Shown: positions 654 through 55,661 of the stretch, piece by piece
Numbering within the stretch: position 1 is the stretch's first letter
Layout: each line of letters opens with the position of its first letter
Source: Flavisolibacter sp.
GTDB lineage: Bacteria > Bacteroidota > Bacteroidia > Chitinophagales > Chitinophagaceae
Direction: 5' to 3'
Length of the DNA stretch: 64,000 nt
Assembly: GCA_028288675.1 (NCBI GenBank)
Contig: JAQBNG010000127.1
Span: 21,654 to 85,653, forward strand
Made by a program: the position numbers and the translations under genes
Notes under the pieces: generated by a model
Told to the model about the DNA's origin: nothing
The model's input: only the letters and a program-made list of their open reading frames with translations
Databases searched by the model: none

Positions 654-749
654 AAATACGAGTGCGAAGTTATAAGTACGAAGTGGAAGAGACAGAAATT
701 CCCGCAACATTCCCGATTTCGTACCTCGTATTTCTAACTTCGTATTTTG
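654..749. repeat. Imperfect inverted repeat of TACGA(A/G)-type roughly 7-bp units between divergent arfB and dtd
   Basis: Left arm AAATACGAGTGCGAAGTTATAAGTACGAAGT (654-684). Right arm ATTTCGTACCTCGTATTTCTAACTTCGTATTTT (716-748), reverse complement AAAATACGAAGTTAGAAATACGAGGTACGAAAT. Confidence 0.75.
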
Positions 750-753
750 TAGT

Positions 754-1206
754 ATGCGGGTAGTTATTCAAAGAGTAAGCAAAGCAAGCGTTAGTGTTGA
801 TAGCAATATAACCGGTATAATAAATACAGGGCTATTGGTGTTGTTAGGCATTGAAGATGCAGACGATGATGAGGACCTACAATGGTTATGTAATAAAATA
901 ACTAACCTTAGAATTTTTAATGATGATGATGGTGTGATGAATAAATCGGTGATGGATGTTGGTGGCGATATTTTATTGGTAAGCCAGTTTACATTACACG
1001 CTTCCACTAAAAAGGGCAACCGGCCCAGTTATATAAAAGCCAGCAAGCCGCATACTGCCATACCTATGTATGAAAAGATGATTAAACAACTGGAAAAAGC
1101 TTCAGGCAGGAAAATACAAACGGGAGTTTTTGGCGCTGATATGAAAGTTGAGCTATTGAATGACGGGCCCGTAACAATTATTATTGATACGAAGTACCGG
1201 GAATAA
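754..1206 (+). CDS. dtd: D-aminoacyl-tRNA deacylase
   Basis: MRVVIQRV start, SQFTL, GNRPS, FGADMKVELLNDGPVT motifs. Confidence 0.97.
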   Translation: MRVVIQRVSKASVSVDSNITGIINTGLLVLLGIEDADDDEDLQWLCNKITNLRIFNDDDGVMNKSVMDVGGDILLVSQFTLHASTKKGNRPSYIKASKPHTAIPMYEKMIKQLEKASGRKIQTGVFGADMKVELLNDGPVTIIIDTKYRE

Positions 1207-1482
1207 CCAGTGTATTTCAGAAAAGTGTATACCGCAACCGCAAAAACAACTTCAGCTATTACATTAGATACAATAACCCCTACACTATATTTCATATTGC
1301 TGATTTGAAAATCAACAGGTACGCAAACGCTATACCCTGCTATAAAATTTCAGCCCATTGATAGCCCTCAAATATCAACTGTCTGTATTTTTATATAACA
1401 ATTAAATGAGCGGTATAGCTTCTGTAGATGTTTTTTAGATGGCCTAAATTTATCAACCATTCCTTCAATTAAACTTACGTTC

Positions 1483-2475
1483 ATGAACAAAACTATAAAC
1501 AGCCAATTGCTAAAGTTTTATAAAAACCTTTCTCATAGCCGGCTCAGGAAACTACTTTATACAGTTTTCCTGCTTTTAAGTTTTTGCAATAAAAGCTTAC
1601 AGGCGCAGGTAGCAGATAGTACGGTTGAAGTAGTGCAGCAAAAACCCATTGCTGTTTCAATAACTGATGTGCAGCCTATATATAAAATAAACACGTTAAG
1701 AAGTGGCGTTTTCAGCATAGTAGCAACTGCCGCCAACTTGTATGCTATACCTACCATTATTCATGGTAAACGAGATATGACGGATGCTGAATTAAATGCC
1801 TTGAATCCTTTATCACCTAATGGAATTGAGCGGTGGGCCCTGAAACAAAACCCAGCTAACCGCGAAAGCTTTTCAAAAGCTTCGGACATTACATTGCCGG
1901 CCATTATTTTTTCCGCTGCCGCCTTAGGTTTCGATAAAAAAATCAGGAAGGATTGGGCAAAGCTCCTGTTGATGTATTACGAGATGCACGCCTTTACATT
2001 TGCCTTGTACGATTTTAGCCCGTTTGGGCCAGCCTTTCAAAATAAATTACGGCCTGTAGCCTACTACAACTATTTTTCGCCTGAAGAAAGAAAGCGGGGC
2101 AACAACCGCAACTCGCTTTACAGCGGGCATGTTGCCAGTGCGGCAGCCAGTACATTTTTTATGGTGAAAGTATACAGCGATTATCACCCCGAAATAGGCA
2201 ACAAACGTTTTTTACTTTATAGCCTTGCTGCGCTGCCTCCGCTTGTTGAAGGCTACCTTAGAGTGAAAGCATTGGCACATTTTCCATCCGATGTGGTAGT
2301 TGGCTTTATAATAGGTGCGGTATGCGGTGTAGGCTTGCCGGAAATGCATCGAAAGAAAGCACAACCGATTAAGTTAGGGTTGTATTCTAACGGGGAAAGT
2401 AACGGGTTAAAGCTGGCGTGGAATTTTACAACAAAGCAAAAAAATCTATATAAACCGCTTTACCCGGGAAATTAA
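1483..2475 (+). CDS. PAP2 (type 2 phosphatidic acid phosphatase) family membrane protein; start uncertain
   Basis: C1 KLRP, C2 YSGH and C3 RVKALAHFPSD motifs, with hydrophobic helices. Confidence 0.8.
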   Translation: MNKTINSQLLKFYKNLSHSRLRKLLYTVFLLLSFCNKSLQAQVADSTVEVVQQKPIAVSITDVQPIYKINTLRSGVFSIVATAANLYAIPTIIHGKRDMTDAELNALNPLSPNGIERWALKQNPANRESFSKASDITLPAIIFSAAALGFDKKIRKDWAKLLLMYYEMHAFTFALYDFSPFGPAFQNKLRPVAYYNYFSPEERKRGNNRNSLYSGHVASAAASTFFMVKVYSDYHPEIGNKRFLLYSLAALPPLVEGYLRVKALAHFPSDVVVGFIIGAVCGVGLPEMHRKKAQPIKLGLYSNGESNGLKLAWNFTTKQKNLYKPLYPGN

Positions 2476-2476
2476 T

Positions 2477-3463
2477 TTATGTTAATGGAGCGGCTATGTT
2501 TTCGGCCTTTTTATCTTTTAGCAGAAATACAGAAGCAGGGTAATAAGGCTCTCCAAGTAAATGCACCTGTATGGGATCTGTAACTCCTTTCATGGTTAGT
2601 AAAGCAGATGGGTAATCTTTGGTTTCGGCTTGTTTTAAAACATCATTCGAAAGAAGAAAACTATTATTCAAATCTTTGGTAGCCGATTGAATTCGCGATG
2701 CGATATTAACCGGCAAACCCATTACCGTTAAATTGTTATTGATACCCAGACCTACGTTACCTACAATTACATTACCGCAGTGCATGCCAATACCAATTTG
2801 AAAGCGGTGGCGAAAATACTTTTGAACATAGTCTCTATTAAAATTTTCCAGCTCTTTAAAAATAGCGAAGCCGGATTCAATAGCATTCATTGCAGCCGTT
2901 TCAGGACTGCACCGTAAACCAAAAACAGCGTACAAACCATCGCCCGCAGTTTCGATTATTTTACCACCGCCGGCCTCAATACAGGTTCTGCATATGCCAA
3001 ACAGCTTTCGCAAAATATGTATCACATCAAAGGCAAGGTAAGCTTCCATAAAAGGGGTAAAATCCCTGATGTCTAAAAAGAAAAGCACGAGCTCTTTTTC
3101 TTCTCCTAGTTCACTAAAGTCATTTTCGCTTTGGTCTATGTATAAGTCAACATCCGATACGTCGCGAATGATCCTGTGAATTGATACAGGGGCATTTTCT
3201 ACAAAAGTTTGACAGGCTAACCGAACATTCGATGGGAAAGTAAGTTGCTCCCTTAACGCAGCTTCCTTATCATTAATAGCGCTTAAGTGTTCCTTGCCTT
3301 TGCTTACCAATATCCGGCAGGTAGAGCATCGTGCATGGCCGCCGCAGGTATGATAATGTGGTATGCCGGCTTTTAAAGCCGCGTCTAAAACAGATTCCCC
3401 TTCCTCTATTGGAATTGTTTTTTCGCCTATAAATTCAATATGAAATGTTTTGTGCGCTGTCAT
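2477..3463 (-). CDS. [2Fe-2S] ferredoxin domain fused to a class III adenylate/guanylate cyclase
   Basis: CGGHARCSTC...RLACQ ferredoxin cysteines. Cyclase motifs FLDIRDFT, ETAGDG, GIGMHCG, VNIASR. Confidence 0.9.
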   Translation of the reverse strand: MTAHKTFHIEFIGEKTIPIEEGESVLDAALKAGIPHYHTCGGHARCSTCRILVSKGKEHLSAINDKEAALREQLTFPSNVRLACQTFVENAPVSIHRIIRDVSDVDLYIDQSENDFSELGEEKELVLFFLDIRDFTPFMEAYLAFDVIHILRKLFGICRTCIEAGGGKIIETAGDGLYAVFGLRCSPETAAMNAIESGFAIFKELENFNRDYVQKYFRHRFQIGIGMHCGNVIVGNVGLGINNNLTVMGLPVNIASRIQSATKDLNNSFLLSNDVLKQAETKDYPSALLTMKGVTDPIQVHLLGEPYYPASVFLLKDKKAENIAAPLT

Positions 3464-3661: not shown

Positions 3662-4765
3662 CTAATTAAAATCGTCCAACGTTTTATCTTCCCGTAAACC
3701 CTGGAAAGACGGGTGGCGCATCAAGCCATCTTTTGTCCGCTCTGTATATTTCACCTCGCAAACAAAATGGGGCTTTACCCACATAGTTGGCGCCCCGGTA
3801 TCTGGCTTAATGTTAAAAGGGCACTCGGAAGTAAACAAAGAATTCATTTTTTTAAAGATTTCCTTCTGCGTCCGTGCCGTAAAACCTGTTCCTACCTGGC
3901 CAATAAATTCAATGCCTTTCTCTGTGGGAACTCCAAGCACCAATGATGAAAAAAGGCGGTCGGTGTCTTTGTTTTTAGTATAGCCGCAAATGATTGCTTC
4001 ATGCCTTTCTTCTACTTTTATTTTGCACCAGTTTGTGGTACGGTAACCGGCTTGATAAATAGAATCTGCCCTTTTTGCCACAATACCTTCGAGGTTACCA
4101 CTTTTTGCAGCTTCAAAGAATTGCTTTCCATATTCATCAATTGAATCGCTGAACCGTATCAAACCTCCATCGGGAATTATCTTTTTAAGAATTTCTTTTC
4201 GCTGGTGCAATGGTTTCCTGGTCAGGTCAATTCCTTCCAGCCAAAGCAAATCAAACAGGTAATAAAACAAGTGGCCGTCTCCTGTGCGGCTCCATTGCTG
4301 AAGCCCTCCAAAATCAGGTTTCCCCTCGCTATCCAATACTACTATCTCGCCATCAACTACGGCATTTACCGGCCAGCCCTGTAGGGCCTCATACACCGGA
4401 AAAAATTTACGGTCGAAAGAGTTATTGTTTCTTGAACGGATAGAAACATCACCATCACTTAAATAAGATAAAGCCCTGTAGCCATCCCACTTAATTTCAA
4501 ATTGCCAGGCCGCATCATTAAACGGTTCTTCAATTACAGAAGCCAGCATGGGTTTTAGATTCGTTGGCATCGCCGATAATTCCCCGCCTTTAAAATCACG
4601 CAGGATAAAGTCAACAACGGTTTGAAGATCTTTACGGATCCCTGTTGCAATAACAAGGCTGCCGGGCTCTTTTGTAGTAGTAGCTCTTTTTTTTCCGGGT
4701 AAAGTTTTTAAACTTTTTCCGTTGAATAAAGTGTTGCTGTTGGAAGGCTTTTTTTGTACACTCAT
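3662..4765 (-). CDS. ligD: ATP-dependent DNA ligase, stand-alone LigD ligase plus OB domains (NHEJ type)
   Basis: LKPMLA, EIKWDGYRA (KxDG), DGEIV, FDLLWL, EGIVAKR, WCKIK, MRHPSFQGLREDK. No polymerase or phosphoesterase domain. Confidence 0.85.
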   Translation of the reverse strand: MSVQKKPSNSNTLFNGKSLKTLPGKKRATTTKEPGSLVIATGIRKDLQTVVDFILRDFKGGELSAMPTNLKPMLASVIEEPFNDAAWQFEIKWDGYRALSYLSDGDVSIRSRNNNSFDRKFFPVYEALQGWPVNAVVDGEIVVLDSEGKPDFGGLQQWSRTGDGHLFYYLFDLLWLEGIDLTRKPLHQRKEILKKIIPDGGLIRFSDSIDEYGKQFFEAAKSGNLEGIVAKRADSIYQAGYRTTNWCKIKVEERHEAIICGYTKNKDTDRLFSSLVLGVPTEKGIEFIGQVGTGFTARTQKEIFKKMNSLFTSECPFNIKPDTGAPTMWVKPHFVCEVKYTERTKDGLMRHPSFQGLREDKTLDDFN

Positions 4766-5061
4766 ACAAACACCGCCTCCAATTATATGCCTATGCCAGT
4801 GCGCTTTTTTAAGCGATACGCATAAACGGTTGAGCTTTAAATAGTTTGCAATTTATACACAGGATATACAGGGGAAAGCGGGAAAATGTGAATAATGCAG
4901 CTAAGTAATTAAAAGTCAATCCGTATATAATTTTTGTTGAATAGATAACGGCTGCCCTAATTGTAAGCTTATATTTTGGGCGTATCCCGGGGCGGGGCGG
5001 GCTATCCGCTTCAATCTTTTTGTACCGGTGCGGATACAAAAAGGATTTCTGCTTCTATCCC

Positions 5062-6378
5062 TTACGCAACAGCCGGCCCACCTGGATGGTTAGAATGGGC
5101 TGGCAGCAAAATTAAAAACCGGGCACCCTCCCCTTCTTTGCTATGTGCGGCAATTAGCCCATTGTGCTTCTCAACAATTTTTTTAGTGATGGCAAGGCCG
5201 ATGCCGGTTCCTTCGTAAGTTTCTTTTGAATGCAGGCGCTCGAAAAGCGAAAAGATTTTAGCCGCGTATTTTTCATCAAACCCGATGCCGTTGTCAGAGA
5301 TAGTAAGAAGGCAAAAAGCGCCTTCAGGATCTTCTTCGCTGTCGAATGATTTATCTCGTACCAGCTTTGCGGTTATGTCGATAATTGATGTCTTTTCTTT
5401 TCCTGCAAACTTCAGGGAGTTTGACAAAAGGTTTTGAAACATCTGGCGTATTTGTCCGCGGTTTACATATAAACAGGGTAGCTCGCCCACGTTAATCACC
5501 GCTTTTTTCTCAGCTATAAATAAATCAAAATCATCTAGTAATTCTTTTATCAACACATTCAAATCAATACATTCAAAAGGGTTATCGTTAGCCGATAGTT
5601 TGGAGTAATTAAGTACATCAATTATCAGCGCTTTCATACGGCCGGCCGAATAAATGATCTTCTCTAAATATTTTTTCGATTCGGGTGTTAGCTGCGCTCC
5701 GCCTCTGTCGTTTAGCAGGTTGCTGAACAATTGGATCTTTCGTAGCGGCTCCTGCAGATCATGCGATGCCACGGAAGCGAATTGCTGCAGATCGTGGTTG
5801 CTTAATTCAAGTGCATGATTAATTTCTGCCAACTGTTTGTTATTGGAGCTGAGTTGCTGCTGCACTTTTTTTTGGGCTGTCAGATCGGTAAGAATAATAC
5901 TTAGCGAAACCCCTTCCTCTAACGCTAATTTGGTAAGTGATAATTGCACCGGTGTAAAATGATCGCCAGCGGTTAATAACACTTCGCCTTTGCAATCCTG
6001 GGTCCAGCATCTTTCAAAAAGAGCCTGGTAATCATCTACATTTTCCGGTGCTATAAATTGATGGAAAGGCAAGCTTATTACATTAGACAAAGGCATCTTA
6101 ACCAGGGAAGCAAATTGGGAATTACAATATAAGATCGAACCTTTTGAATTGAGGGTCACCGCGCCTTCGGTCATCTTTTCTATAAAAACCCGAAAGGCCT
6201 GGTCAGCTGATCTGAGCGTATATAATTGGTGACCATTTGTACCTTCCACTACCAGCGCATCTACCTGGCCGGTGCGAATGGCTTCAATAGTTTCGTGCGC
6301 CTCTTGTAACTGCAGCTTTAATTCTTCTATCTCAGCTTGCAGGTCTTCGTTTAATCTTGTCACTGAATCTGTTTTCAT
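5062..6378 (-). CDS. Soluble PAS-domain sensor histidine kinase, last gene of the kai operon
   Basis: PAS region; H-box ASHDLQEPLRKI; N-box QMFQNLLSNSLKF; G1 DNGIGF; G2 GTGIGLAI. No transmembrane segment. The ATG directly abuts the upstream kaiB stop. Confidence 0.92.
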   Translation of the reverse strand: MKTDSVTRLNEDLQAEIEELKLQLQEAHETIEAIRTGQVDALVVEGTNGHQLYTLRSADQAFRVFIEKMTEGAVTLNSKGSILYCNSQFASLVKMPLSNVISLPFHQFIAPENVDDYQALFERCWTQDCKGEVLLTAGDHFTPVQLSLTKLALEEGVSLSIILTDLTAQKKVQQQLSSNNKQLAEINHALELSNHDLQQFASVASHDLQEPLRKIQLFSNLLNDRGGAQLTPESKKYLEKIIYSAGRMKALIIDVLNYSKLSANDNPFECIDLNVLIKELLDDFDLFIAEKKAVINVGELPCLYVNRGQIRQMFQNLLSNSLKFAGKEKTSIIDITAKLVRDKSFDSEEDPEGAFCLLTISDNGIGFDEKYAAKIFSLFERLHSKETYEGTGIGLAITKKIVEKHNGLIAAHSKEGEGARFLILLPAHSNHPGGPAVA

Positions 6379-9820: not shown

Positions 9821-10582
9821 ATGATCGTTAACTACAGTGAAGACGGCTGGGAAGTAATTACGCAACGGGCCCATGGCATATTGGCCGCAGCATTTGCGCT
9901 GCACTGGAAAAAAGCGCAACGCCCTGACCGATGGATGGAAACCCTGCTTGCCATTGCCGAACACGATGATGCTGAAGTGGAACTTGATGGCGAAAACCTC
10001 CTGACCGAAAAGGGTGGTCCACTAAATTTTGACATGAAAGTTTTTGACCTGGCGCACTGCGAAAAACTAAGCCGGCTAACGGTTACCAAGAGCCGCTACA
10101 TTGCTTTGTTGACTTCTATGCATACCGAGTTTTTATACCGCAAGGAGGAGAAAGATAACAGTGAGGCCAAAGCATTTTTAGCGAAGCAACGAACGCTGCA
10201 AACGGCATGGAGAAAAGAATTAAAAATGAGCAAAGAAGAAGCGGAAAAAATTTACGCATTAATGGAATGGTGCGATGCCTGCTCCCTTATTGTTTGCCAG
10301 AAACAAATGCCACCCGAACAAAGAGCGGTCGAAATAAGTCATGGTCCGGATAAGGAAAAATATCGTTTATACCAGCTTAATAAAAACCAATTAACGCTGG
10401 AACCCTGGCCATTTGAAACACCATCATTCAAGGTGCAGTATGAGTCAAGAACAATCAGCCAGCTACAGTTTTCATCATCGCAAGAATTTAGAAAGGCTTT
10501 TTTAGAAGCGCCGGTTAAAGAAACGGAGTGGCAAATTGTACAAAGAAAAACACCGAAGAAACTAAAGATGACAAAAGTGTAG
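9821..10582 (+). CDS. DUF3891-like protein
   Basis: MIV...WEVITQRAHG...AIAEHDD...ALLTSMH metal-binding His/Asp pattern. ATG 9821 preferred over the track start at 9758. Confidence 0.65.
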   Translation: MIVNYSEDGWEVITQRAHGILAAAFALHWKKAQRPDRWMETLLAIAEHDDAEVELDGENLLTEKGGPLNFDMKVFDLAHCEKLSRLTVTKSRYIALLTSMHTEFLYRKEEKDNSEAKAFLAKQRTLQTAWRKELKMSKEEAEKIYALMEWCDACSLIVCQKQMPPEQRAVEISHGPDKEKYRLYQLNKNQLTLEPWPFETPSFKVQYESRTISQLQFSSSQEFRKAFLEAPVKETEWQIVQRKTPKKLKMTKV

Positions 10583-20053: not shown

Positions 20054-20488
20054 ATGAAATTTACTTTGGACAATAAGGACCTGACGGACGGCTTCTTTGA
20101 AGACGCCAGGTTGCTGGGCATCATGGCTCCTATAAAAGATTACCTTTTTTGCTGGCAGGTAAATAGCCTTCTCGGTGTTGACTTTCGTATTAATAACGAG
20201 CTGGAAATAGAACTGAAGAAAAAAGGCCGCAACTATTTTTTCCCCTTGTACGAGTATGCGCAGCCCTCCACTTGTCTTATGCATTATTTATACAATAATC
20301 AGCACGATGGCGAATACTTATTGCCCGAATTTAAGCACCTTGATTTTTTGTGGCTATTAAAGGATGATCATGTACCGGAAGATTATGTAAGCGATCTTAT
20401 TTATTCACTGAAGTCTATTAATGGTGTGCAGTTGGTAGTGGAACTTACAAACGAAAAAATTAAGAATAAAGAGCATTTGGTGTTTTAG
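20054..20488 (+). CDS. IPExxxVDY family protein
   Basis: Typical N-terminal acidic patch and LLGI, with YLLPEFKHLDF as a variant of the family motif. Confidence 0.8.
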   Translation: MKFTLDNKDLTDGFFEDARLLGIMAPIKDYLFCWQVNSLLGVDFRINNELEIELKKKGRNYFFPLYEYAQPSTCLMHYLYNNQHDGEYLLPEFKHLDFLWLLKDDHVPEDYVSDLIYSLKSINGVQLVVELTNEKIKNKEHLVF

Positions 20489-20502: not shown

Positions 20503-20682
20503 ATGAAAATTGCAGCAAAAGAAGGGGAAGAAACGCAATACTGGTTACAGCTATGTATTTATTCTAAAAATTAGCCAGACTGCAACACAGTGGAAGAGAT
20601 TAATAAATTATTAGGAAAGATTATCTCTACATCAAAACGAAACAATCCATTTTCTTATTTATTAAGTTTCTTCATTTTATAA
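20503..20682 (+). pseudogene. 3' remnant of a four-helix-bundle (23S rRNA IVP / TIGR02436-like) gene with an in-frame stop
   Basis: Manual translation: KMKIAAKEGEETQYWLQLCIYSKN*PDCNTVEEINKLLGKIISTSKRNNPFSYLLSFFIL*. KIAAKE.EET.YWL is the family signature. TAG at 20572-20574; the N-terminal two thirds are missing. Confidence 0.8.
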
Positions 20683-20727
20683 AACCATTTTCACAATTTC
20701 ATATTGCTAATTTTCAAATTATTCATC

Positions 20728-20955
20728 ATGTGGAAGGAAATTGACAACACACTTTATCAAAAATTTACTTTCAAAGACTTCAGCGAAGCCTTTGCTTTTA
20801 TGACAAGAGTTGCGCTGCTTGCAGAGAAAATGGATCATCATCCCCGTTGGACCAATGTTTGGAATACTGTAGAAATCTGGTTAAATACCCATGATGCCGG
20901 AAACACCATAACAGATAAAGACAGAAAGCTGGCAAAACAAATTGATGCTTTATAA
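20728..20955 (+). CDS. phhB: Pterin-4-alpha-carbinolamine dehydratase
   Basis: [11 protein letters not shown]...[15 protein letters not shown]...THDAG.ITDKD. ATG 20728 preferred. Confidence 0.92.
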
Positions 20956-22895: not shown

Positions 22896-24038
22896 TTATT
22901 GGGTTACCTGAACGTGCGAAATTATGAAAGCATTTTTAGGTGTTACGGTTTCGCATGCAATGGTGGTAAGTAAAGCATCCAGGCTTTGCCGGGAATGCAA
23001 ACCTTTCAAATAGTGTTTATCATAATAATGTAACAGAATACGAAAGCACTCTTTTACATTATTTTCTTCCAAATGTTGCAAAGCTGTTTTTGTTTCTAAT
23101 GGCCCCAGACGCTTTTTGATTCGTTCAATGGCATCGGATAATTTCTCTTTTTCACACTGGCTGTATTCTTCAGTAATATGTTGAAGGCGCTCTTCAAACG
23201 GAATGTCTAAAAAGTAAATAGGTGATCCCCGCATATTTTGCCACAGGCCACCGGGAATATTCAGGTTGCCGATGCGCTGGCTTTCATCTTCTAACCACAA
23301 AGAGTTTGGAGTTTGGAGTTTAGGGTTTGGGGTTATCTCCGCAGGTTCATCATTCACTATTGGCCAATTACATCTCTCATGGCTCACGGCTAAAAGCTCT
23401 AAGCTGAGCCTGTTCTCAAACATTTCCTGCGATGGCTGCATAGGCATATTAATACTGCCGAATGCAGAACCTTTATGTGAAGCGAGACCTTCTAAATCTA
23501 TCACTGCTTCACCAGCTTGTTGCAGTTGTTGAAGCACTTCTGTTTTACCTGAACCAGTGTAGCCGCCCAAGATTTTAAAAGGGTAAGGTTGTTCAAAAGA
23601 TTTTAATACATAGTTGCGAAAAGCCTTGTAGCCACCTGCCAAAACCGTTACGTTAAACCCGTACATATTTAGCAACCACGAAACAGCACCACTACGCATA
23701 CCACCCCGCCAGCAGTAGAGAAATACGCATTTAGCAATTGGCAACTGGCAATTTTTTTCGATGCTTATTGCAGATTGCTTATTGCCAATTAATCTCTCCA
23801 CTTCCTCCACCATCCCCCGCATCTTAGGACCAAAATAATCAAGGCCTATTTTGATAGCATCTTCCCTGCTTCTTTGCTTATAAGCAGTACCTACAACCCG
23901 CCGTTCTTCATCGGTAAACAAGGGGAAACTTATAGCACCGGGAATGCAGGCATGATTGTATTCCGATGGCGAACGCACATCGAGTAATAGACCCTCACTG
24001 CTTCCCTTTAAAAATTCTTCAACCTGTGTCCGCCTCAT
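22896..24038 (-). CDS. selU: tRNA 2-selenouridine(34) synthase with two in-frame repeat-derived insertions
   Basis: DVRSPSEY rhodanese domain, YCWRGGMRS, GGYKAFR, GYTGSGKT P-loop, DLEGLASHKGSAFG, EDESQRIG. Confidence 0.95.
   Translation of the reverse strand: MRRTQVEEFLKGSSEGLLLDVRSPSEYNHACIPGAISFPLFTDEERRVVGTAYKQRSREDAIKIGLDYFGPKMRGMVEEVERLIGNKQSAISIEKNCQLPIAKCVFLYCWRGGMRSGAVSWLLNMYGFNVTVLAGGYKAFRNYVLKSFEQPYPFKILGGYTGSGKTEVLQQLQQAGEAVIDLEGLASHKGSAFGSINMPMQPSQEMFENRLSLELLAVSHERCNWPIVNDEPAEITPNPKLQTPNSLWLEDESQRIGNLNIPGGLWQNMRGSPIYFLDIPFEERLQHITEEYSQCEKEKLSDAIERIKKRLGPLETKTALQHLEENNVKECFRILLHYYDKHYLKGLHSRQSLDALLTTIACETVTPKNAFIISHVQVTQ
23302..23400 (-). repeat. In-frame heptamer repeat block inside selU
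   Basis: Five tandem 7-mers GAGTTTG GAGTTTG GAGTTTA GGGTTTG GGGTTAT (23302-23336), plus degenerate TTCA.. and CTCA.. periodic units. Translated as LLAVSHERCNWPIVNDEPAEITPNPKLQTPNS. Confidence 0.75.
23731..23792 (-). repeat. In-frame heptamer inverted repeat (NNGCAAT units) inside selU
   Basis: Sense strand TGGCAAT AAGCAAT CTGCAAT AAGCAT cgaaaaaa ATTGCCA GTTGCCA ATTGCTA. Encodes LIGNKQSAISIEKNCQLPIAK. Confidence 0.85.
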
Positions 24039-24815: not shown

Positions 24816-24920
24816 CAGCAATCAGCAATAAGCAATTTACAATGGGCAAGCGTAAAATTAAATAGGCAAAGAAATCAGTCATTTCAACCTGATTTATTTG
24901 CCTATTGCTTATTGCCAATT
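24816..24920. repeat. NNGCAAT heptamer inverted repeat with an inner 18-bp stem, downstream of rho
   Basis: CAGCAAT CAGCAAT AAGCAAT TTACAAT ... ATTGCTT ATTGCCA ATT. Inner stem AATAGGCAAAGAAATCAG / CTGATTTATTTGCCTATT pairs at 17 of 18 positions. Confidence 0.8.
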
Positions 24921-24931
24921 TCTTATTAGTC

Positions 24932-38141: not shown

Positions 38142-38482
38142 TGCCTGTCTATTTAGTAGACGTAAACCTGCCCTATTATTTTTCTCTTTGGCATACTGCC
38201 GATTTTGTTTTTGTAAGAGATTTGAATGATGAATGGAAAGACAGTACCATCTGGAATTATGCTTTGGAAAATAAGCTGATCATCTTAACAAAAGATACCG
38301 ACTTTTTTGACCGCGTGCTGGTAGCGAAGGTCCATCCGAAGGTGATTCACATTTCCTTCGGTAATGTGTTAATGAAAGAATTTTTCTCGATCATAGAAAA
38401 AGTATGGACTCAAATTTTGGCGCTTGAAAATCAATATCACCTAATTAAAGTGTACAAAGATAAAATCGTGATTATAAAATAA
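38141..38482 (+). CDS. DUF5615 PIN-like putative toxin
   Basis: YLVDVNLP, DSTIW, ILTKDTDF. TGATG coupling to DUF433. Confidence 0.85.
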   Translation: MPVYLVDVNLPYYFSLWHTADFVFVRDLNDEWKDSTIWNYALENKLIILTKDTDFFDRVLVAKVHPKVIHISFGNVLMKEFFSIIEKVWTQILALENQYHLIKVYKDKIVIIK

Positions 38483-39210
38483 TGAATAAACCAACTCTCC
38501 ATACCTGCCTCTCCCCTGCGCTTTTACATTTATACGATGTAAAGAACACGGTTGTTGTAGTTATTGATATACTCCGTGCCACATCAACTATCGCCACTGC
38601 TTTGTACAATGGCGCAAAAGAAATAATACCCGTTGACAGTATAGAAAGATGCATTCAGCTAGGAACCCAAATTGAATGTATCACAGCCGGCGAACGCGAT
38701 GGACAAATTGCTGCGGGATTGCAATATGGCAACTCATCATTTGAATATCCTGAGAGTTTTATCAAAGGAAAAGTTTTAGTGCTTACAACAACCAATGGCA
38801 CTAAGCTTTTACATATGGCCCTGGCCAAAGGCGCAACGGAAATTATTACCGGAGCCTTCTTAAACCTATCGGCAGTTTGCGATCATTTGATAGCCATGAA
38901 TAAGAATGTGATACTTGGCTGCGCCGCCTGGAAGGATAAGCCAAATATTGAAGACACCCTTTTTGCCGGCGCTGTTGTAGCAAGAATAAAAGAACATTTT
39001 AGCATGAACTGCGATGCTTCTCATATTGCAGAACACCTATACAATTTTGCCAAAGGTGATATGTACGAATTTATGAAGACGAATGACGCTTCGCATTACC
39101 ATCGCTTAACCAATTTTGGACTGGAAAAAGACATCCGGCATTGCTTAACTATTGATGTGGCAAATGTGTTACCGGAGTATGTGGATGGGAAGCTGGTAGT
39201 TCAGAAATAA
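38482..39210 (+). CDS. 2-phosphosulfolactate phosphatase (ComB) family protein
   Basis: VVIDILRATST, AGERDG, GNS, LTTTNGT, EDTLFAG. Confidence 0.9.
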   Translation: MNKPTLHTCLSPALLHLYDVKNTVVVVIDILRATSTIATALYNGAKEIIPVDSIERCIQLGTQIECITAGERDGQIAAGLQYGNSSFEYPESFIKGKVLVLTTTNGTKLLHMALAKGATEIITGAFLNLSAVCDHLIAMNKNVILGCAAWKDKPNIEDTLFAGAVVARIKEHFSMNCDASHIAEHLYNFAKGDMYEFMKTNDASHYHRLTNFGLEKDIRHCLTIDVANVLPEYVDGKLVVQK

Positions 39211-39317
39211 CCTATTCCTCCAGCTGTTTCCTTAAAGAAATTTAACGGTAAAATAGTATCAATTCATTCCACTTTACGGCAAAGTTTCATTTAGTTTTGT
39301 CGATTGGCCTTTTTGGT

Positions 39318-39370
39318 CAATTGGCAATAAGCAACCCTTTTGTCAATTGCAAATTGCCGATTGCAAATTG
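39318..39370. repeat. NNGCAAT heptamer inverted repeat upstream of the SNF2 gene
   Basis: CAATTGGCAATAAGCAAC ... ATTGCAA ATTGCCG ATTGCAA ATTG. Confidence 0.75.
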
Positions 39371-39375
39371 ATTCC

Positions 39376-44769: not shown

Positions 44770-45288
44770 ATGCCAGATGACTCTCCACTTATTGTTACGC
44801 TTTCACTGGATGAAGCATCTTTCCAATTTTTCGACAACCTTCACAAACAATACTTTCCGCCAGAAAGAAACTTTTTACTAGCGCACCTAACGCTCTTTCA
44901 TCATCTGCTACCGGCCAAGCCAAAAATAAAAGAGAACTTATATAAATGGAGTAAAGAAATAGAGCCATTAGTGTTGCAGGTAGTTGAAATAATAAGCATC
45001 GGCAAAGGCGTAGCATATAAAATAGAATGTGAACCATTACTACAATTGCATCGCATCATGCAAAAGGAATGGCAAGACTGGCTACAGCCTCAAGACAAAC
45101 AAAAGTTATGGCCGCATGTAACGGTTCAAAATAAAGTAACACCAGCTAAAGCAAAGGAAACGCTGGAAGAATTGAAAACTACATTCAAGCCGTTTACCGC
45201 AATAGGAACAGGCTTTAGTTTATGGAGTTATGAAGGCGGCCCGTGGGAGTTTATAGAAAGCTTTCCTTTTTTAATTCTGTTGGCATAA
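44770..45288 (+). CDS. 2H phosphoesterase (2'-5' RNA ligase-like) family protein
   Basis: Two HxT motifs: AHLTLFH and PHVTVQN. Confidence 0.85.
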   Translation: MPDDSPLIVTLSLDEASFQFFDNLHKQYFPPERNFLLAHLTLFHHLLPAKPKIKENLYKWSKEIEPLVLQVVEIISIGKGVAYKIECEPLLQLHRIMQKEWQDWLQPQDKQKLWPHVTVQNKVTPAKAKETLEELKTTFKPFTAIGTGFSLWSYEGGPWEFIESFPFLILLA

Positions 45289-45303
45289 AATGAAAGTTCG
45301 CAA

Positions 45304-45362
45304 TTAGTAGTTTCCGGTTGGCAATGAAGGTGCAAATTCCAAACTGGAAACTGCCAACTAAT
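45304..45362. repeat. Heptamer-periodic (NNNAACT) imperfect inverted repeat
   Basis: TTAGTAGTTTCCGGTTGGCAA ... TTCCAAACT GGAAACT GCCAACT AA. Confidence 0.6.
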
Positions 45363-45471
45363 GGTTTAATGACACATTGAATAAGAATCTCACCGCTCGT
45401 CCTTCGCTTAACCTAAATTAACTACAGATCATCAACTATCCGAATATCTTCGTATTCATCAATCAAAGCTT

Positions 45472-48378
45472 ATGAAGAAAACATACTTCGCCCTGCTGGT
45501 GCTTATCTCTTTCTCCGCATCGGCGCAAAAAATTTCGGGCACGGTAAAAGGAAGCTTACAGGATTCCACATCGGCCACACTCTTAAGCGATGCAACAGTT
45601 TCTGTAGTGAGCCTTCCCGACTCCTCCCTTATTTCTTTTACGCTTACCCGCAGCAATGGCTATTTCGAAATTAAAAACTTAGCCGCCGGCAACTACCTTT
45701 TAGTGGCTTCGTTCAGCGGGTTGCAAACCAAAAAAAAGGCTTTCACCATCAGTGCCGAAAAGGCTACCGAGGATTTCAGTATCATAAAAATGGATAGAGC
45801 ATACAAGGGCATGCAGGAAGTTGTTATTACCGATCAGTCTCCCGTAAAAATTAATGGCGATACCATCTCTTTTAACGCCAATATGTTCAAGACAAAACCA
45901 AATGCTACAGTAGAAGATTTGCTGAAGAAGCTACCGGGCATGCAGGTAGAAAAAGACGGCACTGTAAAAGCGCAGGGCGAAACTGTACAAAAAGTTTATG
46001 TTGATGGAAAAGAATTTTTTAATAACGATCCTAAACTGGCTACAAAGAATTTATCGGCTGATATGGTGGACGCGGTAGAAGTGTTTGATGATATGAGTGA
46101 GCAGGCCAAGTTTAATAAAATTGATGATGGCAGCCGTACCAAAGCGCTCAATTTAAAATTGAAAAAAGATAAAAAGAAAGGTGTCTTTGGAAAAGTATAT
46201 GCAGGCTACGGAACCGACAAACGTTATGATGCAGGATTATCAACCAACTTTTTTAAAGGCGCAACACAAACATCGGTGATTGCAAAAGCCAATAACACGA
46301 GCAACATTGGCTTTACACTTGGCGATATGCTGGGCATGTTCAACGGCCCTGGCGGCGGCGGCATAATGGGCGCTATGGGCGGTGGTTCATTAGGCGGAAG
46401 CAGCGGCAGCGGAAGTTTTGGTGGGGGTTCCGGCGCAATGGGTGGAATGAATATGATTCGTGCCGGTGGTTCCGGTGGTGGCAGCAACCTTGGTGGATTT
46501 AATCTTGGTTCAACAGGTGGCGGCGTTACGGCTTCATCCCAGGTTGGTATTAATTACCGCGATACCTGGAGCAAGTATTTTGAAGTGAACGGCAGTTATT
46601 TTTTCAACCATGCGCAAACCGAAAATGACCGTTATAGCTTTCGACAAAATATAGCTGCGGATTCTTCTATTAACACGGCTGACAGAACCTATTCTAAAAC
46701 CCGCAACAATAATCACCGGTTCAACCTGAATATGGTTTATACCATTGATTCGTTTAACTCCATCATCTATCAGCCCAATTTAAATTTTCAGAGCTCGCAG
46801 TCATTTAGCGATGACACATTAAACAGCGCCGTGGTGAAGAACGGTTCTTCATATACCAATGCAGAAAACCGTACACTCACAAACAATTCCGGCGATGGCT
46901 ACAATTTCAGCAACAATTTAATCTGGCGGAAACGTTTTCGTAAACCGGGCCGCACTTTATCGGTAAACGTTTCTAATACATGGAGCGATAACAACCGTGA
47001 TGCGTATAGCATTATCACCTCTAGATTTTATACCCCAAACGGCTTTAAGTGGATGGACCGCCTGTCGGATTTCGTTACCCGTACGGAAAGCAACACCAAC
47101 AATTACAGCGCAGGCTTTTCTTATACCGAACCTATCGCAAGGGATAAGGTAATGGAGTTTAATTATACCCATAACGATAACCACAGCAATTCGGACAGGA
47201 AAACTTTCAATAAGAATATAGCAAGCGGTACTTACGATGCCCTTGTTGATTCGCTTACCAATCGTTTTGAAAACAGCAATATATACGACCGTATCGGAAC
47301 CAACTTTAGAGTGGTAAAAAAGAAATATAATTACCAGTTAGGTTTTGCCGTGCAGCAAACTTCATTAGAGAGCGACAACCTTTCAAAAGGCAAAAACATT
47401 TTACAGAAAAATACAAACCTGTTTCCAACAGCCTCGTTTAATTACCAGTTCCAACGCAGCCGTAGCTTACGCATTAATTATCGCGGCCGTACGGCCCAAC
47501 CTACTATCTCGCAACTGCAGGATGTAACGGATTACAGCAGCTATCCCTATATATCAAAAGGAAATCCTTCCTTAACCCAGGAGTTCTCGCACAATGTAAC
47601 ACTGAGTTATAATTTCTTCGACATGATCAAATTTCGCAACTTGTTTGCTTTTGTCACCTACAGCACTACGCAAAATAAGATTGCAAATGCTATACAAAAC
47701 CTGCCGGGGGGAGTTCAGTTAACCTCGCCTGTAAATGTAGAGGGTGTATATGCGGTGTCGGGTAATTTCAATATCGGCTTTCCCATTAAACAAATGAAGG
47801 GAGGAAATTTTAATGCTACCAGCCGCATTGGCTATAACCAGGATGCAAGTATTGTAGACAGGATAAAGAATTTCACCCGTAATTTATCGTTAGGTGAAGA
47901 CCTCCGCTTAAGCTACAACAAAGACAAATTAGATCTCGGCATATCGGCCAGCATCAGTTATAACCAGGTAAAGTACAGTTTGCAGGAACGCAACAATACG
48001 TCTTACTTCATGCATGTATATTCTGCCGATGCTACTTATACCTTACCTAAAAATTTCATCCTGTCAACCGATTTTGATTATACGTTCAATACAGGCCGTA
48101 CCGATGGCTTTAACCAGAATTACGCCATATGGAATGGCAGCATTGCCAAACAGGTTTTAAAAAATAAGCGGGGAGAAATAAAGGCTTCGGTGTTTGATAT
48201 CCTAAACCAAAACACCAGCGTTTATCGTAACGTGGCACAGAACTATATCGAAGATGTGCAAAACAGTGTATTGAAACGGTACTTCATGCTGACCTTTACT
48301 TACAACATTAACCGCATGGGTGGAAGAAGCATGCCGCCGATGATGGAAAGAGCGACAAAAGGGATAAGACTTAATTAG
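45472..48378 (+). CDS. Outer-membrane beta-barrel (TonB-receptor-like) protein with an N-terminal carboxypeptidase-regulatory-like domain and a Gly-rich insert
   Basis: Signal peptide, GDTISFNA...EDLLKKLPG, VDGKEFF, PxxxQLQDV, RYFMLTFTYN. Confidence 0.8.
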   Translation: MKKTYFALLVLISFSASAQKISGTVKGSLQDSTSATLLSDATVSVVSLPDSSLISFTLTRSNGYFEIKNLAAGNYLLVASFSGLQTKKKAFTISAEKATEDFSIIKMDRAYKGMQEVVITDQSPVKINGDTISFNANMFKTKPNATVEDLLKKLPGMQVEKDGTVKAQGETVQKVYVDGKEFFNNDPKLATKNLSADMVDAVEVFDDMSEQAKFNKIDDGSRTKALNLKLKKDKKKGVFGKVYAGYGTDKRYDAGLSTNFFKGATQTSVIAKANNTSNIGFTLGDMLGMFNGPGGGGIMGAMGGGSLGGSSGSGSFGGGSGAMGGMNMIRAGGSGGGSNLGGFNLGSTGGGVTASSQVGINYRDTWSKYFEVNGSYFFNHAQTENDRYSFRQNIAADSSINTADRTYSKTRNNNHRFNLNMVYTIDSFNSIIYQPNLNFQSSQSFSDDTLNSAVVKNGSSYTNAENRTLTNNSGDGYNFSNNLIWRKRFRKPGRTLSVNVSNTWSDNNRDAYSIITSRFYTPNGFKWMDRLSDFVTRTESNTNNYSAGFSYTEPIARDKVMEFNYTHNDNHSNSDRKTFNKNIASGTYDALVDSLTNRFENSNIYDRIGTNFRVVKKKYNYQLGFAVQQTSLESDNLSKGKNILQKNTNLFPTASFNYQFQRSRSLRINYRGRTAQPTISQLQDVTDYSSYPYISKGNPSLTQEFSHNVTLSYNFFDMIKFRNLFAFVTYSTTQNKIANAIQNLPGGVQLTSPVNVEGVYAVSGNFNIGFPIKQMKGGNFNATSRIGYNQDASIVDRIKNFTRNLSLGEDLRLSYNKDKLDLGISASISYNQVKYSLQERNNTSYFMHVYSADATYTLPKNFILSTDFDYTFNTGRTDGFNQNYAIWNGSIAKQVLKNKRGEIKASVFDILNQNTSVYRNVAQNYIEDVQNSVLKRYFMLTFTYNINRMGGRSMPPMMERATKGIRLN

Positions 48379-48403
48379 CAAAAGGCAATATGCAATTGGC
48401 AAT
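48376..48403 (+). repeat. Single arm of NNGCAAT heptamers directly after the beta-barrel stop codon
   Basis: TAGCAAA AGGCAAT ATGCAAT TGGCAAT. Confidence 0.7.
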
Positions 48404-48804
48404 AAAAAACGATCAGAGATCGGAGTAATGAAAGAAGCAATTGATAGGGAACTTTGAATTTGAGCGACCAACTCCCTACAGATTCGCTGGAGATAATATC
48501 CATAAAAAAGAAACCCTCAGTTGAGGGTTCTATCTGATCATGCGCTTTTTTGAAGGGAGGTAACTAACGGTTGACGAACCGTAAATTACGACGCCTAAAA
48601 TTGATTTCATGAAGCGCCATACGTTGTAGGATGGTTTGTACGAGCTGCTGTAAATCTGTGCAGCCTGTTTTGCGTACTCAATGTCTCTGTTTTTCATGCA
48701 GGTTATTTTAGTTTGTGGAAAATAGGTGGATAAACTTAGTCATTTACATTGAAATAACGAAGCCTTTGCCTATTTTGTTGTCGAAAACTTTTAATATCCA
48801 CTCT

Positions 48805-53584: not shown

Positions 53585-53605
53585 ATAACCTTAGAAAAAA
53601 ATAGT

Positions 53606-55114
53606 ATGAAATTTAAAATAATTATTTGCGCCGCATTTTTTGCACTTGCTTTTGCCGGGTGTAAAAAATCATGGCTTGACGTAAATACCAACCCCAATCA
53701 ACTACCTACTTCTACTCCTGACTTTGTGTTTACTTCGGGTGTAGCAAGAACTGTGGCCTATCTTACTCCTAACGAGACAGGCTCCTATTGGTCCGGGCAG
53801 TGGACGCAATCCAACACTTACATTATTGATCCCGCCCGCTTTCAATACCAGTTTAATAATACCAACTTCAATTTCTGGGATACGTGGTATGACATCATTG
53901 AAGACTTTCAATTTGTAATAAACAACGCATCTGACAAAGGGCAACCTTTTTTTAAAGGCCCTGCCCGTATAATGAAAACCTATATAATGCAGCAGGTAGT
54001 AGATGCTTATGGTGATGCACCTTATACCGACGCTTTTAAAGGGGTGGCTGCTATTGCACCAAAATTTGATGATCAAAAGGCTATTTATGAAGATTTAATA
54101 AAAGTTCTCGACACAGCTATTACGGATCTTAGAGCCAACCAGGCAACTAACGCACAAAAACCTGCAGATATAGTATTTGCGGGAAGTACAAGCAACTGGA
54201 TACGTTTCGCCAATAGCTTAAAAATGCGTATCCTGATTCGTCAAAGCCGCGTAGCAGGTCGCAGTGCTTACATAACCACTGAGATTAATAAAGCCGCTGC
54301 CACTACAGAAGGCTTTCTTACTGTAGGGCTGGATGTAACTGCCAATCCGGGTTACGTAGCGTCTGCCGGCAAGCTTAATCCATTTTATGAAAATTGGGGC
54401 TATAATGCCGCCGGGGGCGCACAAGCTTTAGCTCGTTTTCCAAGGCCCACCACTTATTTATTCAGCACTCTTATTGCAACCAATGATACCTTTCGTCTGA
54501 AACGCCTGGCTTATCCAAAAGGAGGTGAAGGCGTAAACCCGGAAATTATCAGCAATTATGTAGGTGTTCCTTTTGGGGCTTCTTCTGGTTATTTGTCGCA
54601 GGGCACATCTTATCTTGGCCCATCGGTTATTAAAAAAGGCGAATTTGGAAGGCCTATGTATATTATGTTAGCAGCTGAAAGCTTTTTGCTGCTTGCTGAA
54701 GCAAAGCAATTGTATGGAGCTGCAGTAAACTTGCCGCTAACAGCACAGGCATATTATGAAACAGGTGTACAGGAATCTTTTCGTACCACAGGCGCCACTG
54801 CAGCTTATGGTGCCGACAAAGCAACTACCTTACTCGCCAGCGGAAAAGATTTAGCCGATTGGACTGCTTCGCCTGATAAATTAAAAGCAATATGGATGCA
54901 GAAATGGATTGCCCTAACCAACTTTAGCGGCATGGAAGCGTGGAGCGAATTTCGCAGAACCAATTTCCCTCCAACACCAATATCGGCATCGGCAACAGCC
55001 GGGTCTAAATTACCGTTGCGATTATTTTACCCAAGCACAGAAGAAGGGTCAAATCCGAATGTACCAAAGGGAGTAGATGTGTTTACTACAAGAATTTTCT
55101 GGGATGTAGATTAG
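53606..55114 (+). CDS. susD: SusD/RagB family lipoprotein (pair 1)
   Basis: Lipobox FAGC, NTNPNQ, YGDAPY, QKWIA, WSEFRRT, PLRLFYP, IFWDVD. Confidence 0.9.
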   Translation: MKFKIIICAAFFALAFAGCKKSWLDVNTNPNQLPTSTPDFVFTSGVARTVAYLTPNETGSYWSGQWTQSNTYIIDPARFQYQFNNTNFNFWDTWYDIIEDFQFVINNASDKGQPFFKGPARIMKTYIMQQVVDAYGDAPYTDAFKGVAAIAPKFDDQKAIYEDLIKVLDTAITDLRANQATNAQKPADIVFAGSTSNWIRFANSLKMRILIRQSRVAGRSAYITTEINKAAATTEGFLTVGLDVTANPGYVASAGKLNPFYENWGYNAAGGAQALARFPRPTTYLFSTLIATNDTFRLKRLAYPKGGEGVNPEIISNYVGVPFGASSGYLSQGTSYLGPSVIKKGEFGRPMYIMLAAESFLLLAEAKQLYGAAVNLPLTAQAYYETGVQESFRTTGATAAYGADKATTLLASGKDLADWTASPDKLKAIWMQKWIALTNFSGMEAWSEFRRTNFPPTPISASATAGSKLPLRLFYPSTEEGSNPNVPKGVDVFTTRIFWDVD

Positions 55115-55136
55115 TGCAGCAACTGATAATTTTCTT

Positions 55137-55190
55137 TAGACTATAATTTAAAGAGCCGCTCAAATGAGCGGCTCTTTAAATTATAGTCTA
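55137..55190. terminator. 25-bp perfect hairpin after susD
   Basis: TAGACTATAATTTAAAGAGCCGCTC-AAAT-GAGCGGCTCTTTAAATTATAGTCTA. Confidence 0.75.
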
Positions 55191-55661
55191 TGTGCTGTCA
55201 ACTGTTTACTATAAACATCTCAGCCCTGTCTCTTGCTTCTTAACCCTTCATCACAGTTACTGCCTACTGTCCTACTGATCCATCTACGGTGTTTTTATTG
55301 TTTAAAATGGTAATGCACTTCTTCTATTATTTTCTATCTAAGAAGAGCGAATGCCATAATAATATTTGTTCTTGGTTTACAATTGAAGATTTGTTTTAAT
55401 AGTAAACAAACATAAAGAACCTTCTTACACTTTATAGGCAAAAGCACTTACTTCAGTTACAGAAAGCAAAACCTTTCATGCAGCACTTGTTCAATGTTTT
55501 ATCTCTAATTAAAAGAAGAAAATCTTTTTGCGGGTATAGCTTCATATAGTGTTTTATATGTATTTTTTGGGTTGATTTCAAGATATCGATTTTCACTAAT
55601 CTGCTCCCCGCCGAAAACTACTGTCACTTTAATAACCATTTTTAAAATAAATATTCGCATT

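Follow-up and report, generated by a model that had tools for sequence, protein, structure and literature searches.

Tandem repeats of heptameric units entered the literature in 1990, when Mazel et al. reportedly described the STRR heptamers of cyanobacteria, and to our knowledge they have no accepted origin or function. The PF05635 family of "23S rRNA intervening sequence" proteins has thousands of members, some with solved structures, and we know of no role for them outside diversity-generating retroelements. Here we describe a 64,000-nt stretch of Flavisolibacter sp. DNA (contig JAQBNG010000127.1; hereafter the window) that carries short arrays with a 7-nt period, some of them folded as hairpins, together with the relic of a PF05635-type four-helix-bundle (4HB) gene. 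An initial annotation had joined the two as products of one undescribed mobile system. With moderate confidence, we read the window as holding two related but distinct things, namely a set of period-7 arrays and a decayed PF05635 cassette whose arm has period 8. Two old puzzles, the origin and function of heptamer repeats and the role of PF05635 proteins, meet here in one testable question.

Rehm et al. (2015; PMC4692102), citing Mrazek 2007, reported an over-representation of heptameric repeats across many bacterial genomes and described 186 GGGAATC arrays in Xanthomonas campestris, 70 of which form convergent inverted pairs. In their data, the gene context of 83% of the arrays is the same in two species, with lengths that vary, some arrays are coding, and polymerase slippage was suggested as the cause. 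The window arrays are best filed with these known, unexplained repeat pairs, of which they are a Chitinophagaceae example. Like the Xanthomonas GGGAATC and STRR repeats, they consist of 7-nt tandem units (3-14 copies) with period 7 enriched over neighboring periods; they are mostly intergenic with some coding cases, frequently form convergent inverted pairs able to fold into stem-loops, and keep their gene context across species with variable length and sequence. Unlike the GGGAATC arrays, they belong to a Bacteroidota host, include several unit types within 64 kb, and have A/T-rich units (NNGCAAT, GAGTTTG, and GGAAACT) that lack G3 tracts and hence any G-quadruplex. Over-represented heptameric repeats, inverted pairs included, had already been described (PMC4692102), which does not favor the undescribed system suggested by the initial annotation.

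The period-7 excess was established with a self-match scan (21-nt window, at least 15 matches) controlled by 40 dinucleotide shuffles. Ten runs were found at period 7 when 0.62 +/- 0.83 were expected, whereas at the same threshold periods 5, 8, 10, 11, and 13 gave 0-1 runs each (period 8, 1 run vs 0.6 expected); periods 6, 9, and 12 gave 3-4 runs each because of codon periodicity. The runs lay at 23298-23337, 23371-23405, 23722-23755, 23762-23790, 24813-24845, 24898-24927, 32220-32247, 39337-39372, 45331-45360, and 48376-48405, and Tandem Repeats Finder (TRF) reported period-7 arrays at six places (23302-23334, 23762-23785, 24816-24836, 24898-24920, 39345-39370, and 48378-48404). The run at 32220-32247, inside exbD, has no fold support and is probably due to chance. 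The two methods together gave nine arrays with 3-4.7 copies each. The unit GCAATNNGCAAT, allowing at most one mismatch, occurred 29 times compared with 10.7 +/- 3.5 expected, a count reached in 0 of 100 shuffles, and its matches clustered at 23727-23785, 24818-24922, 39317-39371, and 48378-48403, confirming that the unit NNGCAAT is common to four sites. The sites are alike only in this 5-nt core; their spacers and unit numbers differ. The shuffles rule out chance or a codon artefact as the source of the arrays, and the initial observation is largely right, with reservations for three of the sites first proposed: periodicity is weak at 654-749 and marginal at 55257-55278, and the arm beside the 4HB relic (20685-20727) has period 8 rather than 7. 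A scan of 258 kb around selU in relatives likewise detected 20 period-7 runs compared with 2-9 at periods 5, 8, 10, and 11.

We then compared the folding of each site as RNA with that of shuffled sequence (z score). The proposed hairpin architecture was borne out, as imperfect hairpins, at 650-752, 23725-23795, 24806-24932, 39310-39378, and 45296-45368, but not at 23296-23410, where the two arrays do not pair with each other (z +0.4), nor at 48376-48405 (folded as 48366-48440), 55257-55278 (folded as 55240-55300), or the exbD run (folded as 32200-32270) (Table 1). Four arrays lie in frame inside selU, whose product has Rhodanese and AAA_SelU domains. The arrays beside comB and the SNF2 helicase gene, 3' of the 2'-5' RNA ligase-family gene, and at the outer-membrane barrel gene occupy spacers whose neighboring genes are co-directional.

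Comparison with relatives indicated how these arrays have changed. The nearest relatives of the window are the Flavisolibacter sp. metagenome-assembled genome contigs L002 and L018 (~80-82% nucleotide identity), and other Chitinophagaceae are 63-78% identical. Among 15 selU orthologues, linker 1 ranges from 66 to 174 nt and linker 2 from 48 to 123 nt. The linker-1 array hairpins are orthologous in the window, L002, L004, and L005, with a conserved right arm CAACTGCCAATTGCTAAA, and in L003 both arms have changed in concert to GGAAT/ATTCC, whereas eight orthologues (66-78 nt; among L007 and L009-L017) are array-free. Array alleles folded with z of -1.9 to -3.1, compared with +0.35 or higher for array-free alleles. 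Linker 2 of L002 combines a homologous left array with a different right unit, NNTCAAC. Arrays of this kind can thus be retained within the reading frame of protein linkers while their arms co-vary, which bears on the coexistence of non-coding structure and coding sequence. Downstream of rho, the window, L002, and L021 all keep the inner stem GGCAAA...TTTGCC; its outer heptamer arms are degenerate in L002 but clear in L021 (NNNCAAT) and in the window, and L011 has a plain terminator alone with no heptamer extension. The units in this stem resemble the stem that they extend, suggesting local reiteration. In L011, the position of the window array upstream of the SNF2 gene holds just a short ATTGC...GCAAT stem.

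Gene context and pair type are therefore kept with variation in length and sequence at selU loop 1 and downstream of rho (L002, L004, L005, and L021). Because the period-7 arrays hold the same positions in relatives that are 55-80% identical, changed in place, they are unlikely to be recent insertions; empty alleles occur in distant relatives only, and filled alleles are orthologous. Together, these sequence comparisons indicate that the period-7 arrays are of long standing and change where they are; the roughly nine arrays, at six places, have long occupied fixed spacers and two selU linkers that are dispensable. Palindromic repeats that are tolerated in frame at variable, dispensable protein segments recall the Rickettsia palindromic elements, reportedly described by Ogata et al. 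in 2000 as ~100-150 bp copies of a defined consensus in frame in protein genes; unlike these, the selU inserts are short arrays of units, lineage-specific, and apparently evolving in place.

The source genome turns up in several soil metagenomes (eight runs, all typed as probable DNA). Soil contigs of run X1 match only the GAGTTTG array (23299-23333) or start at the NNGCAAT array (23727), diverging on both sides, and such divergence suggests that these soils also contain the arrays in different surroundings. Changes in the 4HB relic are visible in the soil-metagenome contigs, which are too fragmented at the arrays for 7-nt steps to be read.

The relic itself, as had been claimed, derives from a PF05635/TIGR02436-type gene. 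Its read-through peptide gave 15 protein matches, annotated as PF05635 "four helix bundle protein," with 54-79% identity and E-values down to 6e-15, and it matched positions 66-129 of a profile built from intact relatives of a divergent PF05635 subfamily, here termed class A, with an E-value of 1e-24; the N-terminal half is deleted. Compared with the window, the strain in run X5 has lost 19 nt at 20495 and gained 12 nt after 20590, which is the behavior of a decaying pseudogene. Of the cassette arms, the right one survives, together with 15 nt of the left. The right arm is of the same type as those of L024, L059, and L080, and the intact cassettes L024 and L059 have left arms of the AATTAGCAAAT type. 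A hydrophobic tail, ...KRKSPFSYLLSFFIF*, ends many class-A 4HB proteins (L021-L100) as well as the window relic (20647-20682); this tail, KRKSPFSYLLSFFIF, is encoded by T-rich DNA just 5' of the right arm, and other copies lack it.

Table 1. Arrays, hairpins, and cassette remnants in the window
Feature	Coordinates	Strand	Evidence	Location
Imperfect hairpin, arms ~657-690 and 716-751	657..751		Fold 650-752, z -4.5, 0/200 shuffles as stable; periodicity weak (units T..AAG), below period-7 scan detection at >=14/21 matches	Fills divergent spacer between ArfB-like RF-1-domain gene (241-648, -) and dtd (754-1206, +)
Left-arm remnant GGAAATTAGCAAAAA	20488..20502	+	Inverted match to TTGCTAATTTTC at 20705-20716	Directly after stop codon of ORF 20054-20488
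PF05635/TIGR02436-type pseudogene, C-terminal half	20503..20682	+	Single frame, in-frame TAG 20572-20574	
Right arm, five period-8 tandem units CATTTTCA CAATTTCA TATTGCTA ATTTTCAA ATTATTCA	20685..20727	+	Read directly	Up to ATG of pterin-4a-carbinolamine dehydratase (PCD) gene (20728-20955)
Two period-7 arrays, GAGTTTG x4.7 (23298-23337) and GCTNNNN x4 (23371-23405)	23298..23405	-	TRF, scan	In frame in variable linker 2 of selU (22896-24038, -)
NNGCAAT/ATTGCNN inverted heptamer hairpin	23731..23790	-	TRF, scan; fold 23725-23795, z -2.65	In frame in variable linker 1 of selU; encodes peptide LIGNKQSAISIEKNCQLPIAK
Compound hairpin; inner terminator-like stem GGCAAA...TTTGCC extended on both sides by NNGCAAT/ATTGCNN units	24818..24923	-	Fold 24806-24932, -37.5 kcal/mol, z -4.7	Between rho stop codon (24932) and start of next gene (24761)
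NNGCAAT/AATTGCN array hairpin	39317..39371	+	TRF, scan, unit search; fold 39310-39378, z -1.9	Between comB (38482-39210) and SNF2 helicase gene
Heptamer-array hairpin TAGTTTC/CGGTTGG ... CAAACTG GAAACTG CCAACTA	45304..45362	+	Run 45331-45360; fold 45296-45368, z -2.3	Just 3' of stop codon of 2'-5' RNA ligase-family gene (44770-45288)
Single NNGCAAT array, four units, no inverted partner	48376..48405	+	TRF, scan, unit search; fold z -1.1	Overlaps stop codon of outer-membrane beta-barrel gene (45472-48378)
Marginal three-unit array TTACTGC CTACTGT CCTACTG, not a hairpin	55257..55278	+	TRF score 31; fold z -0.5	Spacer downstream of susD-like gene

The spacer that holds the relic, from a gene ending ...KNKEHLVF to the PCD gene, was found in several states. 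It is empty (~20 nt) in L009, holds intact 4HB cassettes in L021, L022, and L027 and a truncated 4HB gene with its right arm in the window, contains GATAAT/ATTATC-type arms around 50-150 nt of non-coding sequence in L004-L007, and carries decayed remnants in L018, L016, and L008. This series shows cassette sites that hold periodic hairpins without a gene, as the initial annotation had proposed, at any rate where the arms have period 8. When the empty L009 was compared with the filled L021, L022, and L027, no target duplication was seen at the cassette borders; the cassette takes up the whole spacer between stop codon and ATG. No 4HB remnant was detected in the gene-less middles of L004-L007 with two profiles at E-values up to 10, and the middles of L004-L007 and L018 had no Rfam match at the gathering threshold. 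The gene-less arm pairs at L004 14100-14210, L005 13990-14130, and L006 14290-14440 (reverse strand) enclose 100-150 nt, and the segments enclosed in L004 and L005 are 73-77% identical; the enclosed segment may be other cargo or a small RNA.

Next, we examined intact relatives of the relic. A metagenome scan returned 80 intact-gene loci (genes of ~120-130 codons), out of >500 candidates; by eye, inverted arms of tandem units bracket nearly all of them. Some 85 intact relatives in Bacteroidota are enclosed by inverted tandem-repeat arms whose period is 8 with few exceptions, as in L046 (AATTAGCT AATGTGCT AATTTGCT ... CATTAGCA x3) and L078 (AATGTGAA x7 ... ATTTTCAA x4). Under a strict cut passed by 2 of 363 control windows, period 8 scored best for 25 of the 70 flanks examined upstream and for 40 of the 72 downstream, and period 7 for none of ~140. 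The two flanks were inverted repeats scoring above every shuffle at 55 of 66 loci. The two arms of a cassette were more complementary to each other than to those of other loci (median score 17 vs 10; Mann-Whitney p 3e-16), and hence co-vary. The intact proteins matched PF05635 with E-values of 3e-24 and 4e-35, PDB 2rld with 2.5e-23 (class A), and PDB 2gsc with 4e-19. Classical PF05635 genes share the arm design in Gillisia (CTGTGAAG / CAACTTAA), Chryseobacterium (period 8), and a soil contig; on L047, the gene lies between rfbB and rfbA with a left arm CGTAAAGG and a right arm of CGACTTA x6 (period 7) followed by CGACTTAA (period 8). An exception is Sphingobacterium (L103 8730-9280; also L104), in which the 4HB gene is flanked by a ~60-nt direct repeat, TCTTTCGCAAA...CAGAAGAACAAAAACAC...ACAT-ATG, that duplicates the leader of the downstream ugd-like gene, and not between inverted arms.

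Among 79 class-A genes, 55 had both accB and accC identified as neighbors and 11 had either accB or accC; rsmI is downstream of five, three are at PCD, and the last five are at other places. A neighbor-joining tree groups the class-A 4HB genes by host locus, indicating old paralogues and vertical inheritance rather than frequent movement. Arm units differ within the rsmI clade (GCTAAT vs GATAAT), which points to remodeling of the arms in place.

A similar arrangement was found in a second phylum. PDB 2gsc is XCC0516 of Xanthomonas campestris, and in the four Xanthomonadales genomes examined, XCC0516-family genes of Xanthomonas, Stenotrophomonas, and Dyella are located between accB and accC. 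Their flanks are period-7 inverted arms of the GGGAATC heptamer (left, CGGGAATCGGGAGTGGAGAATCGGGAATCGG; right, CCCATTCCCCATTCTCGACTCCCTATTCCC), the sole period-7 runs in each 6.3-kb Xanthomonas locus. The left arm at XCC0516 ("conserved") is repeat no. 15 of 186 in the supplement of PMC4692102, which does not note that one Xanthomonas repeat pair brackets this PF05635 gene. In Stenotrophomonas and Dyella, gene-less inverted GGGAATC pairs also occur within 10 kb of the 4HB gene. Folding of the whole-cassette RNA placed the arms in a closing stem both in L225, with one mismatch per 7-nt unit (z -7.3), and in the Chitinophagaceae cassette L046 (z -4.2). Thus, the arm/4HB gene/arm unit that had been postulated exists and is widespread, with inverted flanks at most Bacteroidota loci and in all four Xanthomonadales genomes, and the tie between hairpin and 4HB gene holds at the family level across two phyla. 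PF05635 genes are bracketed by periodic inverted arrays in Bacteroidota and Xanthomonadales, with a common accB|accC spacer. This spacer holds a PF05635 gene of a different subfamily in each of the two phyla: the classical subfamily with period-7 arms at the Xanthomonadales loci (L225-L228, L233, and L234; ~2920-3380 or 9985-10430) and class A with period-8 arms on Chitinophagaceae-like contigs within L023-L100.

The closest described relative of the cassette is the 23S rRNA intervening sequence (IVS) of Coxiella and Leptospira, in which an S23p (PF05635) open reading frame (ORF) lies in the loop of a terminal stem (28 bp in Coxiella) and which RNase III excises (Warrier et al. 2016; PMC4990558). 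The cassettes similarly place a small PF05635 gene in the loop of a long terminal-inverted-repeat stem (28 bp in Coxiella; ~25-35 bp here), and ORF decay is seen in both, the IVS being regarded as a selfish or neutral insert. Unlike the IVS, the cassettes are found in mRNA spacers (accB|accC, upstream of PCD, and upstream of rsmI) and not in rRNA helices 9, 25, or 45, and within their arms a period of 8 or 7 nt recurs. Protein genes flank the relic on both sides, and an Rfam scan found no rRNA in the window, which excludes a position in 23S helix 9, 25, or 45. The relic is a decayed IVS-type cassette with period-8 arms, a non-ribosomal counterpart of the 23S rRNA IVS.

These results suggest the following model for the two components. 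Through replication slippage, the arrays would lengthen and shorten locally by 7 nt at a time, often beginning at an existing stem such as the rho terminator, and arm complementarity would be kept by selection on a transcribed stem or by hairpin-templated correction. If transcribed, the arrays may act as extended terminators or as processing or stabilizing stems. The cassette RNA is predicted to fold into a closing stem with the gene in its loop, a putative RNase III-type substrate. Arrays and cassette are linked at the family level because 4HB genes sit inside such hairpins; the derivation of the window arrays from a 4HB gene, or their dependence on one, is hypothetical, and several tests speak against recent insertion. 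The initial annotation's gene-less derivatives accordingly stand for the period-8 arm pairs at the relic locus (L004-L007) and not for the window arrays, which differ in period and unit. The association of arrays with nearby 4HB genes that it had suggested was not found in the 258 kb of relatives carrying 20 period-7 arrays, and neither the window nor L002-L019 contains a 4HB gene besides the relic.

Three points weigh against this two-component model. Local slippage leaves unexplained why the GCAAT core recurs at four sites in 64 kb and GGGAATC at 186 sites in Xanthomonas; shared units at dispersed sites call for dispersal or for a genome-wide, sequence-specific partner. It is possible that a 4HB gene with NNGCAAT period-7 arms lies elsewhere in the genome, beyond the window, as the source genome was covered by the 64-kb window and by contigs of at most 14 kb for two window proteins looked up. 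In addition, the cassette units and NNGCAAT both start at an AAT anchor (AATNTGCT vs AATNNGC), so common descent is possible.

A less likely alternative takes up the need for a partner. Here, a PF05635 protein would bind the short-period arrays of its genome in trans, promoting their maintenance, homogenization, or occasional dispersal, while the 4HB gene itself is inherited vertically at a fixed site (e.g. accB|accC), bracketed by cognate arrays; the window NNGCAAT arrays would be served by a 4HB gene at another place in the genome. This is the logic of REPIN-RAYT systems (Bertels and Rainey 2011; PMC3116915), which likewise comprise dispersed inverted-pair hairpins with a genome-specific repeat sequence and a vertically inherited single gene flanked by its own genome's repeats. 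A gene flanked by its genome's own dispersed repeat was found in the Xanthomonadales and, for period-8 arrays, on L047, L072, L090, and L101. The Xanthomonadales 4HB arms belong to the genome-wide dispersed GGGAATC family, the left arm being one of the 186 listed repeats, with gene-less inverted pairs nearby; that the gene is bracketed by its own dispersed heptamer follows the same reasoning that identified RAYT as the REPIN partner. On the Bacteroidota contigs, gene-less period-8 arrays often matched the 4HB arms of the same contig better than those of 81-82 other loci (rank 0 for L047 and L101, rank 1 for L090, and rank 4-12 for L072). Arm units also differ between related cassettes, with the 4HB genes inherited vertically per locus, as RAYTs are. 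Conversely, the flanked gene encodes a PF05635 four-helix bundle and not a Y1 (IS200/IS605-like) transposase, the repeats are 7-8-nt tandem arrays and not 20-25-nt REPs, and mobility of the arrays is hypothetical. The period-7 arrays on 4HB-bearing Bacteroidota contigs showed no unit match to the co-resident 4HB arms, and no cognate gene for NNGCAAT was seen in the sequence examined. We know of no catalytic activity for the 4HB fold, which also counts against such a partnership.

On L047, three adjacent gene-less period-8 arrays lie at 791-828 and 1110-1214; two match the classical 4HB arm unit 6 kb away (CGCCTTTA vs CGTAAAGG), and one is of the class-A type (CATTGAGC).

Arrays of the form (GCAATNN)x4 are also present in >120 viral-collection contigs (L105-L224; G+C 0.25-0.71), a search whose pattern forces period 7. 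No 4HB gene was found with them in 1.05 Mb, which again does not favor a partnership. Such arrays are ubiquitous, and the scan is uninformative on the source genome. The viral-contig arrays often lie beside a second, unrelated heptamer array (e.g. L108, L128, L170, and L183) or form hairpins (L110, L111, and L200).

It is conceivable, although doubtful on present evidence, that PF05635 proteins are the missing trans partner of 7-8-nt arrays in Xanthomonas, Bacteroidota, and perhaps STRR. That the protein, a pentamer in solved structures, would bind the arrays as DNA or RNA and drive their homogenization or spread without a recognizable nuclease or transposase is an equally speculative part of this proposal. 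If true, the partnership would be a two-part system with REPIN-RAYT logic, each genome's 4HB gene lying within a hairpin of cognate arrays; Xanthomonas campestris XCC0516, Flavobacterium, and Chitinophaga species offer tractable organisms in which to test it. By title and abstract, none of the listed literature matches for PF05635, TIGR02436, or the family name concerned repeats.

We consider it unlikely that the arrays are gene-less derivatives of an arm/4HB/arm mobile element without a recognizable transposase, possibly spread through an RNA intermediate, in the manner of a MITE (a miniature transposable element with inverted repeats). Such a model accords with the generality of the cassette architecture, with the empty, intact, truncated, and gene-less states of the relic locus, with a gene-less class-A hairpin at L072 7823-7946, and with the occurrence of one cassette type at at least four host loci (accB|accC, PCD, rsmI, and others). 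The relic also resembles L077 (78%) and L098 (74%) more than it does L027 (68%), L022 (61%), and L021 (59%), which are syntenic with it, a comparison over 58 pseudogene residues only. However, the window arrays have period 7 and units unlike the period-8 arm of the relic, their positions are conserved in divergent relatives, and the window sites show no whole-length similarity. Unlike a MITE, the cassettes have no target-site duplication at their borders; host-locus clades are monophyletic, the gene-less middles hold no 4HB remnant, and the gene tables list no reverse transcriptase beside any cassette. A diversity-generating retroelement was also considered and rejected: no reverse transcriptase was present in the gene tables around ten 4HB loci, nor among those window ORFs that were scanned, and matches to bAvd were weak (E 5e-4, below the cut-off).

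A very improbable reading is that the arrays are tandem binding sites for a regulator recognizing GCAAT at 7-nt spacing with incidental hairpin symmetry, since, although the core recurs at four sites and heptameric direct repeats serve some regulators as operators (PMC5930380), unrelated units (GAGTTTG, GGAAACT, GGAAT, and GTGAATG) show the same period and symmetry, two arrays lie within a coding region, and the arms co-vary as expected if pairing matters.

Several smaller observations concern individual sites. For the SNF2 helicase ORF, the TTG listed as its start falls within the heptamer hairpin (39340-39377); judging from its alignment with the start in L011, the true start is probably the ATG at 39377. 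An array similar to that at 55257-55278 (CTTACTG/CATACTG) is present at L021 6470-6507. Strain-level metagenome contigs showed no length difference at 649-753. A known RNA family was rejected as the identity of the arrays, as Rfam at the gathering threshold matched only Flavo-1 in the window. This Flavo-1 RNA (RF01705) lies at 4991-5072 on the minus strand, upstream of ORF 3662-4765, and scored 53.6 bits against a gathering threshold of 42. Finally, a (GTT)n/18-nt repeat occupies 26074-26113 in the N-terminal insertion region of rho (24932-26650, -), and this region varies between strains, since one soil contig has a rearranged copy with 22 extra letters.

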